Shown in pieces: positions 23,132-28,760 of a stretch of DNA of 64,000 nt; the first letter of the stretch is position 1, and each line of letters opens with the position of its first letter. The notes under the pieces were generated by a model. The model was not told the origin of the DNA. It saw only the letters and a list, made by a program, of their open reading frames with translations, and did not search any database. The DNA lies in the NCBI GenBank assembly GCA_963662665.2, contig CAXXJS010000021.1, positions 64,001 to 128,000 on the forward strand, in the 5' to 3' direction. Position numbers and translations under genes: made by a program. The stretch is from Candidatus Latescibacterota bacterium. GTDB taxonomy: Bacteria > Latescibacterota > UBA2968 > GCA-2709665.

Positions 23132-24556
23132 TCAGGAGGAGGCGAAAACGCCTCCCCAACCACCCTTGAAGGTGACGTCCAGCACCGTTTTTGCCCGATG
23201 TGTAACGGCCGTAGACTGGGCAGTACGCAAACCGACCACCCAGAGGATGGCCTGGCCGCCCAGGAGCAGCGGAATCTCGTCACGCAACGGTCTCGGAATT
23301 TTGAGGTTGATAAACAGGTCGCTGACTTTTTGTGTCCCGTTCAGGCCGAGCGGTCGGAAGCGATCCGCCCGGCGCCGATTCCTCAGGATCAGGCCACCGG
23401 GAAGCGCATCGTAGTCGAAACAGGCGCGATATGGATCGGACGATAGTTCATTCCTTCGTACCCGGCCGGCCGGCCGGATTCTCGTTTCCAGAACCGCGCC
23501 GATTTCCGCAATTTCAGTGATGCCCGGAACGGCGACTTCGGACTCGAAAAACGGCGTTGGGCGACTGAAAATCAGCCAGGGGCTCGAACGATGAACGGAG
23601 ATGTCGGAAGACATCTGAACCACGCCGGCAGGGGTCAGACGCAACGATTCCATGCGGCTGATGCTCTGCTCATCCAGCGCCCGCGCACGGCCCTGAAGCC
23701 GGAAAAAAGCCGTTTTGAAGATTCGGCGCTGAAGTGCTATATGATAACCGAAAACGGCTTTTTCATCAAGGATTATTTTTCGCTTGCCCTCGTAGCGAAG
23801 GGCCATTCGGTACGCCGATTCCGCCTGCTCATCCAGCAGTTGATCTTCGCCCTGGATGATCTCCGCGGACCTTGCCAGGGCAGCTTCGATGGCGGGGTTG
23901 TATTCCGACGCGAGCTCCGGCAGGAGACGATGCCGGATCCGGTTCCTGAGAAACCGGATATCGGCGTTTGTGACGTCACGGCGCACATGCAGGTTTCGGT
24001 GGTCGACATAGGCTTCGATCTGTTGGCGCGAAACCGTCAGAAGGGGGCGTATCCAGATGCCGTCGCGGATCGGCCTGATTGCGCCGAGCCCGGTCGGACC
24101 GGCGCCGCGAATGAGGCGCATCAATACAGTTTCGGCCTGATCGCTTCGCGTATGGCCCAATGCGATCCGCGAAGCGCCTGCGGTCCGCATTACGCGCTCA
24201 AGAAATGCCAGTCGTGCTTCGCGGGAATCCGATTCAGGAGAACCCGTTCCCGGCAGCGTGGCTCTTTCCGAATAGAACGGGAGACCCATCGAGGCGGCGA
24301 GATCCCTTACGAATCGCTCGTCCATATCGGATGCCCGGCCCCTGAGTTGATGGTTGAGGTGGGCGACGCAGAGCGAGATATCGAGAGATTCGACAAGCCT
24401 GGCCATGATGTCCAGAAGCGATACGGAGTCCGGGCCGCCCGATACGCCGATCACAATTCCGTCGTCCCGATCGATCATATCGTGCCGGTCGATGTACGAT
24501 TGTACCGCCGGGAGCAGGTCAGGTGTGTCGGAATTGCGGCTGGTGGACGGTTTCAT
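23132..24556 (-). CDS. tilS: tRNA(Ile)-lysidine synthase
   Basis: [10 protein letters not shown]-loop, [28 protein letters not shown]-terminal RDEIPLL. Confidence 0.94.
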
Positions 24557-24764
24557 GGGTAAATTGCCCGTGTTGCGATTCCCTTCTCTCGCGGCGTACG
24601 CCTATCGGGCCTTGTGGTGTTGAAGGCCCTTTCGGACATTAGACGCCGCGGAAATCGGATCGGTTTCTGAAAAACCGTATTCGCGCAATCGTTTCTGTGG
24701 TTCGTTCTTGCGCCATCCATCCCGTCCGAAAGATAGATTCTACACAACATCGCAGCAAGAAAAG

Positions 24765-24794
24765 AAAAAACGCGCTGAAATCAGCGCGTTTTTT
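24765..24794. terminator. Intrinsic terminator ending the redox operon (symmetric A/T tails)
   Basis: AAAAAACGCGCTGA-AA-TCAGCGCGTTTTTT, 22 nt downstream of the 24817 stop on the minus strand. Confidence 0.8.
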
Positions 24795-24816
24795 CGTTCG
24801 AATACACCGCATTTAT

Positions 24817-25803
24817 TCAGGGTACGCTTTTACCGAAGTTCCTGGCGAATTCCAGAAAGTCCGGAAAGTCGACCAGGCCGCTCCCGTCCAGGTCGAAGGC
24901 GGGATTGTCGGTGTTGAAAGCCTGGGCGAAGGCGATGAAGTCGCTGAACCCGATTTCGCCGTTATTGTCAAAGTCGGCCCGGGGATTGACGGAGACAACA
25001 ATGGCCGTTCCCGAAATTGCGACCGTGACGCTGCCGTTTTCCGGGTCGTCGCTGGAAATGGTAATGGTGCCGGAGAATGGGCCGCCCTCCGCGGGCGTGA
25101 AGGTGATGTCGACATTCGCACTGTCGCCCGGTGCGACCATAAGCTCCGTCAGGCTGAACGTGACGCCCTCGAGGTCGGACGCCAGATCTGTGATGCTGAG
25201 GTCGTCTCCGCCTGTATTTTTCACGACGAGGGTAACGGTCCTGGTTTCGCCGGCCGGAACGTCATCCCCGAAGTCGAGCGATGGAGTGGGGAGGCTGATT
25301 GCAGGCGGCGCGACGGTCAGCAATTCCCGGATACTCGTCGCCGCGGCGCCGAGACCCGAAGCGCCGCGCCCGATGTGACGGATGATCCCTTCCCGGTCCG
25401 CGACCAGCAACGTGTGGGTCCCGTGAGAACCCCTGATATTGCCTGCCTGCAGCAGGAGGGGAAACGTGATCGTGGATACTGACTGAAAACCCCTGAGCTG
25501 AGCCGGACTGCCATTGTAGATGTCAAGTCCCAGGACTGCAAAGCCGTCATCATCCTGGAACGCCTTCCAGATCTGCTGTTCTATGGACGGACCCGCCGCC
25601 CGGCAGGTGGGTCAGTTATGGCCCAGGTAATATAGAGCCAGAACACTGCCCTCGTAATTCGCAGAGCCATAGGTTTTCCCGTCCAGCCCAGTAAGTGAGA
25701 ACGTCGGTACCGCGTCACCGACACTCTGTGCATTCGCGGGTCCGAGGGGGTAAAACGCCAAGGCCAGTAGGAATACGACGCATGCAACGATTCGACCCAT
25801 CAC
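24817..25803 (-). CDS. Putative secreted selenoprotein: AhpC/TSA-redoxin domain with UxxC, Ig-like (ASH/choice-of-anchor-D-like) domain and dockerin/EF-hand-like tail
   Basis: ORFs 25612..25803 and 24817..25410 share one frame, separated only by TGA 25612-25614. Readthrough gives ..VGDAVPTFSLTGLDG..LYYLGHN-U-PTC..FAVLGLDI..ITFPLL..LLVADREGIIR, a thioredoxin fold; 328 aa in total; AAGGAGG SD. Confidence 0.82.
25585..25611 (-). promoter_or_regulatory. Candidate bacterial SECIS element
   Basis: After UGA: CCCACCUGCC-GGGCGG-CGGGU-CCGUCC. The stem starts 11 nt downstream and the G-rich apical loop begins after 16 nt. An alternative hairpin ACCUGCC-GGGC-GGCGGGU is also possible. Confidence 0.5.
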
Positions 25804-25834
25804 AGTCCTCCTTTGAGAAAATGTGTCGTCTGCG

Positions 25835-27418
25835 TCAGAAATAGGTTTTCAGACGCATCTCAAGGCCATTGAACGGCAACACCAGATAGCATGTCCCCGA
25901 TGTACACGCGGCGCCGCCTCGTCTGCGGCCGGCGAATACGAAGGCTTCGTATCGATCGAGAAATGCGACGTTGAGATTGACCGACAGCCAGGAACGTGTC
26001 CCGGTCTCCACCCGGTCCGGTGTGGCGCCGTCGTCCACTTCAAACGGATCGTTGGTACGATCCAGTATGAGGGCGCAGCCCACGCCCGAGGGATGCTGGA
26101 AGGAAAACTGGGTAAAGACGTCCAAGAACCCCGGCTCGGTTCGAGGCTGCCTGGCCGCGCGCCGGACCTGAAAATCCAGGCCCGCGACAGATCCGCAGGG
26201 CGTCGTGGATTCGATTCCCGCGCCGGCGATTCTGTGCTTCCGAATCCCCTTCAGTTCGTTTTTTCCCCAATCGACGAACAGGTTGGTGGAAATCGCGTGG
26301 TCCCCGCCATCAGACGGAAGGTCGACCTCCACGCTGAAATACCGCTCGTTGAAGGTCGTTGTGAAGCCGGGCGCGAGTTCGTTCTCACCCTTGCTTACAT
26401 TTGCCGTCAGCGTGCCCAGACCGAATATAGAATAGGTGGCTTCCGCCTGATAGCCCTTTTCCGTATCGGCAATCAGGGCATGGGTGGCCCGGTTGAGCAG
26501 GACGGCCGAGTGTTCGCGGACAAGGGATGGTGGATCGTTGAAACTGAAGGCGAATTTCTCGTAATCCTTGTATTCCAGGCTCAAGCCCAGGTTGGAAATT
26601 CCGGCGTTGGCCGAAATATAGAGAGCGCTGCCGTCCACGTGCACGTCTTTCAGCCCTGCGTATTCGGCGTAGACGGTTGCATAAGCTTCCGGAAGGCCGG
26701 ATGCTTCGATTGCGGGCGTGACGTCGAATTCCAGAAAACCCGACCATGTTCGGGTGGAGTCAAACCTGGAGGCGTGATGGTTGACGGCGGTGACACCGGT
26801 CTTCACTTGCTTGTGAGGCCGCAGCGAGACCTCGCCTCCGAGAATCCAGTCGTCACGTCGCGGTACATCACGAAGCGGATTACCCACCCGCACCGCAGGC
26901 GGAATATCACTAAATACGGGTCGCCCGATCAGGGCCTTTGCCTCGGCCCGAGACCCCGCCCAGGTGGCAATGCCACCCTCCAGGTCCCGGGAAGGCGAAT
27001 AACGCCGTCGGTATTGCCCGCTCTCCAGAATAACTCCGGGCAGATCGAAGGCCCTGATCGTGATGCCACGACCCAGGATGGCGTAGTAGTTGCCCGCAAC
27101 CAGCTCGACGGATCCCTGCGTCCAGCGCGCGTGTTTCTGGGAGATATGCACGATCTGGTATTCAACCTGTGACAGCGGCGAGCCCGGAGCCGTGCTGCGC
27201 CATGCATTGAAGATTTCCGCCCGGAATCCGGCCTGCAGACCGTGCCGTGTGTAATCGAGGTCGAACTGCTCATAGAGTGACGAAACCGCCAGCGAGTCCG
27301 AGCCCGGTACGCGTCCCCGCTGGATTTCGGTCAGGCTGGATGCGGTCACCTGAGCCACGGCCGGTTTCGAGGTCGGCAGCAGTAGGAGCATTGTCAGGCT
27401 ATTGATCAGCGCTCGCAT
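25835..27418 (-). CDS. Outer-membrane beta-barrel protein, DUF6029-like
   Basis: Signal peptide, AGNYYAILGRGITIRA, EYKDYEKF..NDPPSL, C-terminal GRRRGGAACTSGTCYLVLPFNG..KTYF; alternating beta-strand pattern and terminal F. Confidence 0.75.
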   Translation of the reverse strand: MRALINSLTMLLLLPTSKPAVAQVTASSLTEIQRGRVPGSDSLAVSSLYEQFDLDYTRHGLQAGFRAEIFNAWRSTAPGSPLSQVEYQIVHISQKHARWTQGSVELVAGNYYAILGRGITIRAFDLPGVILESGQYRRRYSPSRDLEGGIATWAGSRAEAKALIGRPVFSDIPPAVRVGNPLRDVPRRDDWILGGEVSLRPHKQVKTGVTAVNHHASRFDSTRTWSGFLEFDVTPAIEASGLPEAYATVYAEYAGLKDVHVDGSALYISANAGISNLGLSLEYKDYEKFAFSFNDPPSLVREHSAVLLNRATHALIADTEKGYQAEATYSIFGLGTLTANVSKGENELAPGFTTTFNERYFSVEVDLPSDGGDHAISTNLFVDWGKNELKGIRKHRIAGAGIESTTPCGSVAGLDFQVRRAARQPRTEPGFLDVFTQFSFQHPSGVGCALILDRTNDPFEVDDGATPDRVETGTRSWLSVNLNVAFLDRYEAFVFAGRRRGGAACTSGTCYLVLPFNGLEMRLKTYF

Positions 27419-27938
27419 CGGCCTTCGCCCCTTCGTCGGCGCCAGCATCCGGAAAAAGCGCCTCAACGGCCGTCAGCAACACTTCGGCGTTTTTCGAATT
27501 GTATCCGACCTGCCTCAGCGCAATCTCACCGTCCGGGGTGATCAGAAGCGTCGTCGGCAGGACGTTTACCTGCATTCGCCGCATCACCGCGCTGTCGGAG
27601 TCGAGGGCGACGGGGAAATTGACCCGTCGCGCCCTGAGAAAGGGTTTCACCCGGTTCTGCCCACGCGGACCGTCCACGTTGACGCCAAGAACCGTGAGTC
27701 CGGATTTGCCGTATTTCTCGTGAATCTTCTGGAGCTTGGGCATTGCCTTGACGCAAGGTTTGCAGTAGGTCGCCCAGAAATCCAGAAGCACCGGCCCGTT
27801 TTTCAGCAGGGTCTTCAGGTTGACCCGTTCGCCCTGAAGGTTCCGGAGGTTGAAGTCTGGGGCTGAGGCGGCGTTCACAGTTGCGACGCCCAGGGTAATC
27901 GAGGCTGCAAAAGCCAGCGATTGAAATAGCGATTTCAT
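27399..27938 (-). CDS. TlpA/ResA-family thiol:disulfide oxidoreductase, exported
   Basis: Signal peptide, APDFNL, LDFWATYCKPC, LPTTLLI; start set at MKSLF (27938); overlaps the barrel gene. Confidence 0.9.
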   Translation of the reverse strand: MKSLFQSLAFAASITLGVATVNAASAPDFNLRNLQGERVNLKTLLKNGPVLLDFWATYCKPCVKAMPKLQKIHEKYGKSGLTVLGVNVDGPRGQNRVKPFLRARRVNFPVALDSDSAVMRRMQVNVLPTTLLITPDGEIALRQVGYNSKNAEVLLTAVEALFPDAGADEGAKADASADQ

Positions 27939-28046
27939 CGTCGCAATCCTTCCCGTTTTCCGCAGTGGTTTGAAGGTCTTGCAATTTATCACCGGGAGCA
28001 GAAAATAGTTGACGTCTATTGCGCCTGCTACGGCGGAGAGGAACTT

Positions 28047-28147
28047 GCCCAAACGGGGGCGCTGAGCTTGTCGAAGCGCCCCCGTTCGGGCGCGTTATTT
28101 CCTTTGCAGACCCTTCGACAAGCTCAGCGAACGGCTCAGGGTGCCGG
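28047..28147. repeat. REP-like palindromic element (CTGAGCTTGTCGAAG family)
   Basis: CGCTGAGCTTGTCGAAG (28060-28076) and its exact reverse complement (28113-28129), plus a GC hairpin 28047-28091. Confidence 0.7.
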
Positions 28148-28760
28148 GTCAATGTTGTGGACAAAAGGTAGACTATCGGGTACTCCCCGTGATAACTGAA
28201 GGACGCCCGGTGTGACTGTGTGGTTCCAGGCTGGAAAACGCCAGTTGCGAAGTGCTTTGCGCCGCACGGGTGAGAACTGATAAACAATAACCGATAATTT
28301 CCGTTTCATCAAGGGCTATTTTGCCAACGCCGGCAACGCGATAGGGTAATGAGGCGCATGCATATCGGACAGATGACGTGAAGGCCGAATCCAGGTCGAT
28401 CCGTTTCCGCTTGCAGCGCCTCACCGGGCGATCTATATTGGATTTGACATTGTTTCACACACCCTGGCGAGGACGACGAGTTCATTGAGTCGCTATGGTC
28501 GCGTCGGGCCCGCTGTGAACGCCCCGGCAGCGTGACCGTGCGATAGCGTCCTGTCCCAAGAATATCTCACCATTCGGCCGCCGATTCATCCCGTCTCGCA
28601 GCGTTGCCCTCGCTCGCCGACTTTGCCCAAGGTCGTCTGTGCTCAGGCGCCTTGCGAGCCGAGCGACTCGACGGCCGAATTCAGGTAACTTATTTTCGGG
28701 ACCGGACACTGGGCCGTCCGTTTTGCGGAGGGTCGTTGAATTTAAGGGGAAGGGCTCGTT

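Follow-up and report, generated by a model that had tools for sequence, protein, structure and literature searches.

A selenocysteine-containing redoxin, a thioredoxin and a DUF6029 outer-membrane barrel encoded in one operon of a Candidatus Latescibacterota bacterium: a possible thiol/selenol relay across the outer membrane

The window analysed here is a 64,000-nt stretch from the genome of a Candidatus Latescibacterota bacterium (assembly GCA_963662665.2, contig CAXXJS010000021.1, positions 64,001 to 128,000 of the forward strand). It harbors an operon of three genes, all located on the minus strand, whose order according to open reading frames and translation is thioredoxin, outer-membrane barrel, redoxin. 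The first gene (27399..27938; assigned by open reading frame, translation and Pfam) encodes a TlpA/ResA-type thioredoxin-fold protein of 179 amino acids (aa), the second (25835..27418; Pfam PF19494 and AlphaFold2) a DUF6029 outer-membrane beta-barrel of 527 aa with 24 predicted strands, and the third (24817..25803 with a GTG start) a UxxC selenoprotein, referred to below as the redoxin, whose translation reads a TGA codon as selenocysteine (Sec, U). As claimed in a first-pass annotation made from the DNA letters, a redox-type pair is found in each of the three proteins: CKPC in the active site of the thioredoxin (C59/C62, codons 27753..27764), CTSGTC in a hairpin near the C-terminus of the barrel (C505..C510, codons 25889..25906, assigned by family-wide invariance) and UPTC in the redoxin (TGA at 25612..25614). 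We consider, as a tentative reading, that these proteins may form a relay of thiol and selenol groups through the outer membrane.

Within the operon, the barrel ATG at 27418 overlaps the thioredoxin stop codon (27399-27401) by 20 nt. The Shine-Dalgarno sequence AAAGGAGGA stands 5 nt upstream of an ATG at 25800, which is therefore a likelier start of the redoxin than the GTG at 25803; the 31-nt gap between barrel and redoxin given in the first-pass annotation applies to the GTG and becomes 34 nt with the ATG. An intrinsic terminator (24764..24795), formed by a hairpin of 14 pairs running from 24795 to 24764 and followed by a T-run, closes the operon, and the earlier description of three linked minus-strand genes with a 20-nt overlap and a strong terminator was thereby borne out. 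Signal peptides, likewise claimed for all three proteins, were assigned by eye from a K/R start, a hydrophobic core and an A-x-A motif, with putative cleavage between VNA and AS, VAQ and VT, and ANA and QS, and an N-terminal helix at residues 2-16 is present in both AlphaFold models (barrel and redoxin). A scan of positions 24500-28800 found no Rfam family near its gathering score and gave weak matches only, to the terminator and to a palindrome upstream of the operon. Since the three-gene arrangement recurs in relatives, it does not appear by chance. The comparisons reported below comprise 20 loci of the same order, a wider survey of 78 loci from the best 80 among 273 relatives, whose assemblies bear titles such as Candidatus Latescibacterota, Gemmatimonadota and Eisenbacteria, and loci of a second phylum, namely that of a genome titled 'uncultured Cytophagia'.

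The thioredoxin carries the active site WATYCKPC and matches the Pfam families AhpC-TSA (88.7 bits) and Redoxin (73.9 bits), with Thioredoxin_8 also over its cut-off. Against solved structures, a profile built from 51 orthologous partners matches ResA, DsbE and TlpA, and residues W55, C59, P61, C62 and the cis-proline P128 are invariant in all 51. The protein thus resembles the TlpA/ResA/CcmG (DsbE) group in its secreted thioredoxin fold with WCxxC and cis-Pro, in its profile matches and in the presence of a DsbD_TM gene in the genome, of which there is one and which is a candidate electron source. It differs in scoring below the equivalog cut-offs, and identity as a TlpA or ResA equivalog was rejected (NF047696, 50.3 bits against a cut-off of 230; NF002854, 104.3 against 170); judged by sequence, it is best described as a family-level relative of TlpA/ResA only. 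The known members of this group act as reductants of periplasmic proteins, among them apocytochrome c, Sco and CuA, and we know of none that pairs with or sits inside an outer-membrane barrel. A BLASTP comparison of the thioredoxin with the redoxin gave no significant similarity, and the two are therefore not recent duplicates.

The barrel was proposed earlier to be of the DUF6029 type, and this assignment stands: PF19494 matches with 50.3 bits against a gathering score of 27, although the match is partial (residues 53-124), and the same family is found in 90 of 91 database homologues, while the nearest atlas clusters are all DUF6029. No NCBIfam family matches the barrel. Homologues occur in 38 of the 41 genomes of the order, the three misses being 97%, 94% and 82% complete. 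The protein ends in ...AACTSGTCYLVLPFNGLEMRLKTYF, with the final residues KTYF and hence a C-terminal Phe, and CTSGTC lies 18-23 residues before this Phe. Conservation of the cysteine pair, a point on which the first-pass annotation had made its reading depend, is complete wherever the site can be read. C505 and C510 are invariant in 20/20 order-level loci, where the other two cysteines of the barrel vary, and in 40/40 diverse database members down to 25% identity, which share the block G-x-R-R-G-G-x-A-C-T-x-G-x-C-Y-x-V-L-P-F-x-G-x-E. In the second phylum 34 of 167 genomes have a DUF6029 match above the cut-off, and a C-x4-C stands at the equivalent site in all 26 barrels with a readable C-terminus, e.g. 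GFVCVGGICRYEPEF; three others are fragments. We propose from these alignments that a C-terminal hairpin of the form G-x-R-R-x-G-x(1-2)-C-x4-C may serve as a hallmark of the DUF6029 family.

An AlphaFold2 model of the barrel from 40 sequences (mean predicted local distance difference test, pLDDT, 89.4; predicted template modelling score, pTM, 0.84) comprises 24 strands. On one side the turns have 2-5 residues, save two of 7 and 12, whereas the opposite side bears the long and highly conserved loops 112-145 and 288-320. Between strands 23 and 24 the model has a short hairpin (502-506/509-513), with C505 and C510 on either side of its tip. If both termini are taken as periplasmic, which is the usual rule, the hairpin would be the last extracellular loop. 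The closest solved structures are the usher pores FimD (Z 19.1 over 360 residues, root-mean-square deviation 4.6) and PapC (Z 17.7), followed among others by MtrB (6r2q_B, Z 13.9 over 371 residues) and Wzi (Z 13.5). Foldseek agrees with the usher-type matches; Foldseek and VIA-align returned generic large barrels only and no specific barrel homologue. The structural matches of the model are thus read as matches of size and fold, not of function.

Only readthrough of the TGA at 25612-25614 keeps the redoxin frame open and yields the motif GHN-U-PTC with U64 (GTG start) or U63 (ATG start). At the aligned codon, 61 homologous redoxin genes of the wider survey have TGA in 56 cases and a Cys codon (TGC/TGT) in 5, and in the same-order set TGA is kept in 22 of 23 copies, with TGT in the remaining one. 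Homology runs through this codon, with both sides conserved in the alignments. The genome encodes the machinery for selenocysteine insertion, with selB (371.7 bits), selA (560.3), tRNA-Sec (73.6) and selD (355.6) all over their cut-offs and with selA, selB and tRNA-Sec adjacent on one contig. These results agree with the earlier claim of a UPTC selenoprotein, and judged from codons and alignments the redoxin is a real selenoprotein. The selD gene of the genome (G000:C40:300099-301019) has one in-frame TGA and for this reason probably encodes a selenoprotein itself.

Directly 3′ of the UGA lies a region resembling a selenocysteine insertion sequence (SECIS) element (25585..25608) with two alternative stems, recognised by minimum-free-energy folding and by pairing counts. 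The fold shows a hairpin with a GGUC loop at +22..+25, whose position and loop presumably resemble the element of E. coli fdhF. As registers differ between clades, pairs were counted clade by clade. In the clade with dockerin-like tails, pairing of the 5-pair stem that carries the GGUC loop (+22..+25) reaches 82.7% of cells, as compared with 36-51% when the partner is slid, and in the clade with type IX tails a stem at +14..+28 is paired in 80/80 cells and includes one GC<->UA exchange (8:8) that is probably a single event. RNAalifold found no consensus for 26 mixed segments downstream of the UGA, in which the window reference is 2 nt off and the clades stand in different registers, and no Rfam family matched the region in the scan mentioned above.

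Public gene calls truncate the redoxin at the UGA. All 44 database matches cover at most 78% of the protein, and most public entries are fragments of 194-241 aa which start past the UGA and are named choice-of-anchor D or DUF1573; no curated selenoprotein model scores over its cut-off for the family. Close relatives possess a second selenoprotein paralogue (GHN-U-D/N-L-C, 63-67% identical) in tandem right after the first (L043:6657-7631, L046:6640-7614, L049:6551-7582 and L076:6650-7624). The window, without this tandem paralogue, has one redoxin only, which is followed by the terminator.

Three domains are discernible in the redoxin: a UxxC thioredoxin fold (28-162, with a redoxin domain match at 28-146), an immunoglobulin (Ig)-like domain of the choice-of-anchor-D/HYDIN type (169-268, with a domain match at 164-266) and a dockerin-like tail (275-325). 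The AlphaFold2 model (pLDDT 87.8) shows all three and places residue 64 at the start of helix 65-82, the usual CxxC position. The thioredoxin domain has ResA and DsbE as its nearest structures (template modelling score, TM, 0.79-0.84), while its Pfam match to AhpC-TSA (38.8 bits) is generic. In peroxiredoxins the peroxidatic Cys stands in a PxxxT/SxxC context, and identity as a peroxiredoxin was rejected in view of the motif position and the nearest structures. Of the two functions suggested in the first-pass annotation, peroxide detoxification therefore loses ground, the peroxiredoxin active site being absent from the redoxin, and reduction of extracellular disulfides appears likelier because the fold is ResA/DsbE-like with the motif at the CxxC position.

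The C-terminal tail bears on the location of the redoxin. In the window protein it contains two D-x-D/N-x-D/N-G repeats and two helices, according to sequence and model; dockerin_GC (NF041540) scores 24.8 against a cut-off of 29, while EF-hand_1 passes with 26.5 against 25.4. Neither Dockerin_1 from Pfam nor the type IX tail TIGR04183 matches the window redoxin. More distant redoxins of ~270-380 aa consist of signal peptide, UxxC domain, acidic linker and C-terminal domain. TIGR04183 is over its cut-off in at least 7 of 12 scanned redoxins from other loci; of the other five, three are dockerin-tailed, one has only weak FlgD-like matches and one was judged among the matches listed. By motif, 27 of the 61 redoxins end in a type IX tail and 24 in a dockerin-like tail (23 recognised by pattern, one by eye), and the other 10 are mostly cut, masked or frame-broken. 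Searches with the whole redoxin gave 29-88 matches per genome in five genomes (G022, G024, G026, G029 and G030), and most of the matches listed correspond to the ~55-residue dockerin-like tail, the rest to the thioredoxin and Ig domains. Many of the tail matches lie in very long open frames of up to 8739 aa. The dockerin-like tail looks like a general surface-anchoring tag of the lineage. The window's genome itself contains 16 type IX tails and a PorU-like gene, and 'choice-of-anchor' domains are named for their occurrence with alternative surface anchors. As nearly all members end in surface-sorting tails, the redoxin family is probably extracellular or held at the surface. The surface display claimed earlier is consequently probable for the homologues, and for the window's own protein it is proposed by analogy.

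Further variants of the redoxin gene were noted in the survey. In L111:1442-3358 and L119:1428-3344 a serine beta-lactamase/D-aminopeptidase-like domain stands between the UxxC redoxin and the type IX tail, the fusion protein having 639 aa. In another case (L079 and L080) one chromosome has two copies of the entire thioredoxin-barrel-redoxin locus; the redoxin frame breaks after ~126 aa in both copies and continues in other frames, which may reflect a frameshift, an assembly error or decay.

Synteny had been named in the first-pass annotation as a check on the three-gene system. For the thioredoxin the result is clear: a WCxPC thioredoxin adjoins the barrel in 78/78 loci of the wider survey, upstream on the same strand in 50 and divergently in 28, and stands directly beside the barrel in 25/29 loci of the second phylum, where three of the four misses are contig ends. 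Clustering of the neighbours at 107 loci found the barrel (104 loci) and thioredoxin-fold proteins (96 loci) to be widely recurrent and the rest to be lineage-specific, including genes called by eye as tilS, MocA-type oxidoreductase and ftsH; neither DsbD/CcdA nor OPX nor any other partner beyond the thioredoxin-fold genes recurs in this set. The redoxin is linked in part. A UxxC/CxxC redoxin is found within 4 kb of the barrel in 52/78 loci, in four gene arrangements: thioredoxin-barrel-redoxin (24), divergent thioredoxin with convergent redoxin (17), a thioredoxin-redoxin pair divergent from the barrel (9) and redoxin-thioredoxin-barrel (2). In a genus without a redoxin at the locus, TGA-containing homologues occur elsewhere in 5/5 genomes. 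The set of genes, its conservation and synteny, and the reading of TGA as selenocysteine are direct results of computation, and they define a conserved core of thioredoxin and barrel across at least two phyla, to which the selenoprotein is a lineage-specific add-on. Of the system proposed earlier, the thioredoxin-barrel pair is thus conserved, while the selenoprotein is confined to one part of the family.

Past the terminator, a gene at 23132-24556 resembles tRNA(Ile)-lysidine synthase by eye (SGGxDS motif), and such a gene directly follows the barrel in the genus without a redoxin at the locus. The same neighbour is therefore found with or without the redoxin, whose gene would have been either inserted or lost at this fixed position.

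The interaction between thioredoxin and barrel was addressed by complex prediction with barrel residues 22-527 and thioredoxin residues 24-166, each with its own alignment, and with three controls. The complex reached an interaction prediction score from aligned errors (ipSAE) of 0.83 (runs 0.71, 0.85 and 0.83), as opposed to 0.00 for the best of the three controls; contacts agree between runs to at least 87%, and the partner has a pLDDT of at least 83. The score mark applied is reached by 58 of 80 solved complexes and by 2 of 110 mismatched pairs, a benchmark which holds only roughly because the analysis used its own alignments. To our knowledge, no structure of a thioredoxin inside a barrel has been solved, which the model might otherwise have memorised. 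On the barrel, contacts involve the periplasmic ends of most strands, often at alternate residues (23/25/27/29, 53/55/57, 246/248/250, 375/377/379, 524/526), in addition to loops 111-128 and 295-304 and the hairpin residues 507-508. On the thioredoxin they involve residues 56, 58-60 and 64 around C59, 88-105, 114-126 next to cis-Pro128, and 141-149. Contacts on alternate residues, as expected of inward side chains, together with the loops and residues 507-508 are read as placing the thioredoxin inside the lumen, with its active-site face pointing up and in touch with the Cys hairpin and the loops that fold inward. The prediction of a complex, which the first-pass annotation had suggested as a check, thus gave a positive answer for the thioredoxin, whose model reaches the tip of the Cys hairpin; such a model supports binding but does not show it. 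The barrel residues of the interface are also more conserved than the rest of the protein (0.569 versus 0.476, permutation p ~0.002).

From these elements we derive the following proposal for the operon, a plug-and-barrel relay for thiol/selenol-disulfide exchange through the outer membrane, which we rate as just short of an even chance. Reducing equivalents would pass from the cytoplasm via a DsbD/CcdA-type membrane protein to the periplasmic WCKPC thioredoxin. The thioredoxin is predicted to dock in the barrel lumen from the periplasmic side, so that its active-site face would come up against the conserved loops that fold inward and against the Cys-hairpin tip. By disulfide exchange, electrons could then move from the thioredoxin to the cysteines of the hairpin and from there to an acceptor outside the cell, which in this lineage would be the co-encoded UxxC selenoprotein, a secreted protein that its C-terminal tail would keep at the surface. 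The selenoprotein would in turn reduce extracellular disulfides or similar oxidised substrates. Fold, lumen docking and surface location are predictions in this scheme, and it is the existence and direction of the electron flow that we infer. The first-pass annotation had drawn the same path in outline; the invariant cysteines, the synteny, the selenoprotein and the complex model speak for it, whereas the three-gene unit turned out not to be universal and the peroxide role is disfavoured.

Several observations weigh against this proposal. Regarding the complex, the thioredoxin side of the interface is not more conserved than the rest of the protein (0.534 versus 0.561, p ~0.74), and the model provides residue contacts only and does not fix the distance from C59 to C505/C510. 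If the active site is buried in the lumen, the thioredoxin must undock for re-reduction by DsbD or receive its electrons otherwise. The sidedness of the loops depends on the usual rule for barrel termini, and two Cys flanking a tight beta-turn are also typical of a purely structural staple. Regarding the redoxin, it is not beside the barrel in 26/78 loci and in most loci of the second phylum, and the window protein, without a type IX tail and with a dockerin score below the cut-off, is assigned to the surface by analogy. One locus (L142/L166, G120:C501), the fourth miss of the second phylum, has no thioredoxin within ~5 kb and is the only complete DUF6029 locus of this kind encountered in the survey. 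Moreover, the locus counts come from related genomes and are not independent samples; the varied gene order carries more weight.

Among the other explanations for these data, a redox-gated channel fares best, although we regard it as unlikely. Here the barrel would be a transport pore, the thioredoxin its removable plug and the Cys hairpin a thiol-disulfide latch, with no export of electrons. The usher-sized barrel, whose best matches FimD and PapC are pores closed by plugs, the predicted position of the thioredoxin in the lumen and the invariance of the Cys pairs in both proteins all fit such a channel, which also accounts for loci without any redoxin. However, it leaves unexplained why a surface-tailed UxxC redoxin keeps company with the pair in four arrangements, and no candidate cargo or transport genes recur nearby in the 107 loci.

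Rather improbable in our view is that the hairpin cysteines form a structural disulfide which steadies an extracellular loop, with the thioredoxin as an assembly factor that keeps the Cys reduced or proof-reads them in the periplasm and the selenoprotein as a neighbour with a separate job. A staple typically looks like a C-x4-C over a tight turn, disulfides tend to be stable on the extracellular side, and some outer-membrane barrels need periplasmic oxidoreductases to fold, as LptD needs DsbA/DsbC. Yet a one-to-one pairing at the operon level across phyla would be unusual for a folding helper, the model puts a folded thioredoxin into a folded barrel with high confidence as against 0.00 for the controls, and the linkage to the redoxin survives the shuffling of gene order.

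Slightly less probable again is a secretion pore, in which the usher-like barrel would export the thioredoxin or the dockerin-tailed redoxin and the pose in the lumen would represent a translocation intermediate. The 24-strand usher-like fold with the thioredoxin predicted in its lumen would suit this role, and the export route of the window redoxin is open in so far as it has no type IX tail; but most distant redoxins carry type IX tails, which points to another export route, an exported thioredoxin would still require a reductant, and the invariant hairpin cysteines would be left without a role. We give hardly any credence to a polysaccharide export porin: according to PMC9603273, the one paper on DUF6029 among those listed, Wzi-barrel-like proteins near OPX genes resemble DUF6029 by HHpred, from which such a role is suggested, and Wzi is a weak structural match of our barrel (Z 13.5), but it ranks below many unrelated barrels, and in the 107 loci it is the thioredoxin and not a polysaccharide-export cluster that recurs.

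With MtrCAB the proposed relay shares the predicted logic of a periplasmic redox protein that is sheathed by a large barrel and leads to a surface redox protein. The difference is that Cys/Sec pairs take the place of the haems, that the barrel has a redox pair of its own and that there is no sequence relation; the motif CxxCH is absent from the sequences of all three proteins. The similarity to the MtrAB porin-cytochrome conduit is accordingly one of logic, not of membership. LptD-LptE and the FimD/PapC ushers likewise have a large barrel (24 strands in the ushers, as here), and a separate protein or domain occupies its lumen, as predicted here, but they move lipopolysaccharide or pilus subunits without a redox-active plug, and the relation is one of fold size only, at 7-8% identity.

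With respect to the selenoprotein, a 2026 review (PMC13188914), as far as its main text goes, lists 'Redoxin family protein, PF08534, UxxC' and 'UGC-containing TlpA family' selenoproteins, and the words periplasm, T9SS, dockerin and Latescibacter are absent from that text. The redoxin shares with these families, as described there, the UxxC at the CxxC position of a redoxin fold and the interchange of Sec and Cys; it is set apart, by the same descriptions, through its signal peptide, Ig-like domains, surface-sorting tail and linkage to barrel and thioredoxin. A search of titles and abstracts did not find this selenoprotein family, which could be contained in the supplementary selenoprotein lists of works cited by the review, and it found neither a thiol relay across the outer membrane nor a thioredoxin-in-barrel system. 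The parts are of known kinds, and no assembly like this one was found described in the literature searched.

Two further features of the window lie outside the operon. Upstream of it, a perfect 16-nt inverted repeat with its halves ~36 nt apart (28060-28129) is located in a non-coding stretch of ~820 nt (27939-28760) between the operon and a divergent oxidoreductase gene. It gives weak palindromic Rfam matches on both strands and a terminator-like site on the plus strand, and could be a regulatory site or a repeat element. In addition, genes for tRNA-Ile(GAT) and tRNA-Ala(TGC), the usual spacer pair of rRNA operons, lie 20 nt apart at 35667-35838.

Periplasmic reducing pathways, from DsbD to TlpA/ResA/DsbC, end at the periplasm, and the known outward conduits use haems; we know of no mechanism by which a two-membrane bacterium would provide its outer surface with thiol-based reducing power. 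It is possible, though somewhat doubtful, that the operon represents the first thiol/selenol electron conduit across a bacterial outer membrane, in which a thioredoxin sheathed in a 24-strand barrel hands on electrons via a Cys hairpin to a surface-anchored selenoenzyme and whose core occurs in several phyla of the Fibrobacterota-Chlorobiota-Bacteroidota group. Whatever the mechanism, the analysis identifies a selenoprotein family that public annotation truncates at UGA and provides a simple rule, DUF6029 plus an adjacent WCxPC thioredoxin, which is testable in cultured Bacteroidota. If the proposal is true, the large uncharacterised DUF6029 family would gain a function and an obligate partner, and a new plug-and-barrel class would be added; the conduit would be the equivalent, working by disulfide exchange, of the haem-based MtrCAB. 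Secreted selenoproteins and thioredoxins would then also have a way of remaining reduced beyond the cell, where they could, for instance, open substrates rich in disulfides.

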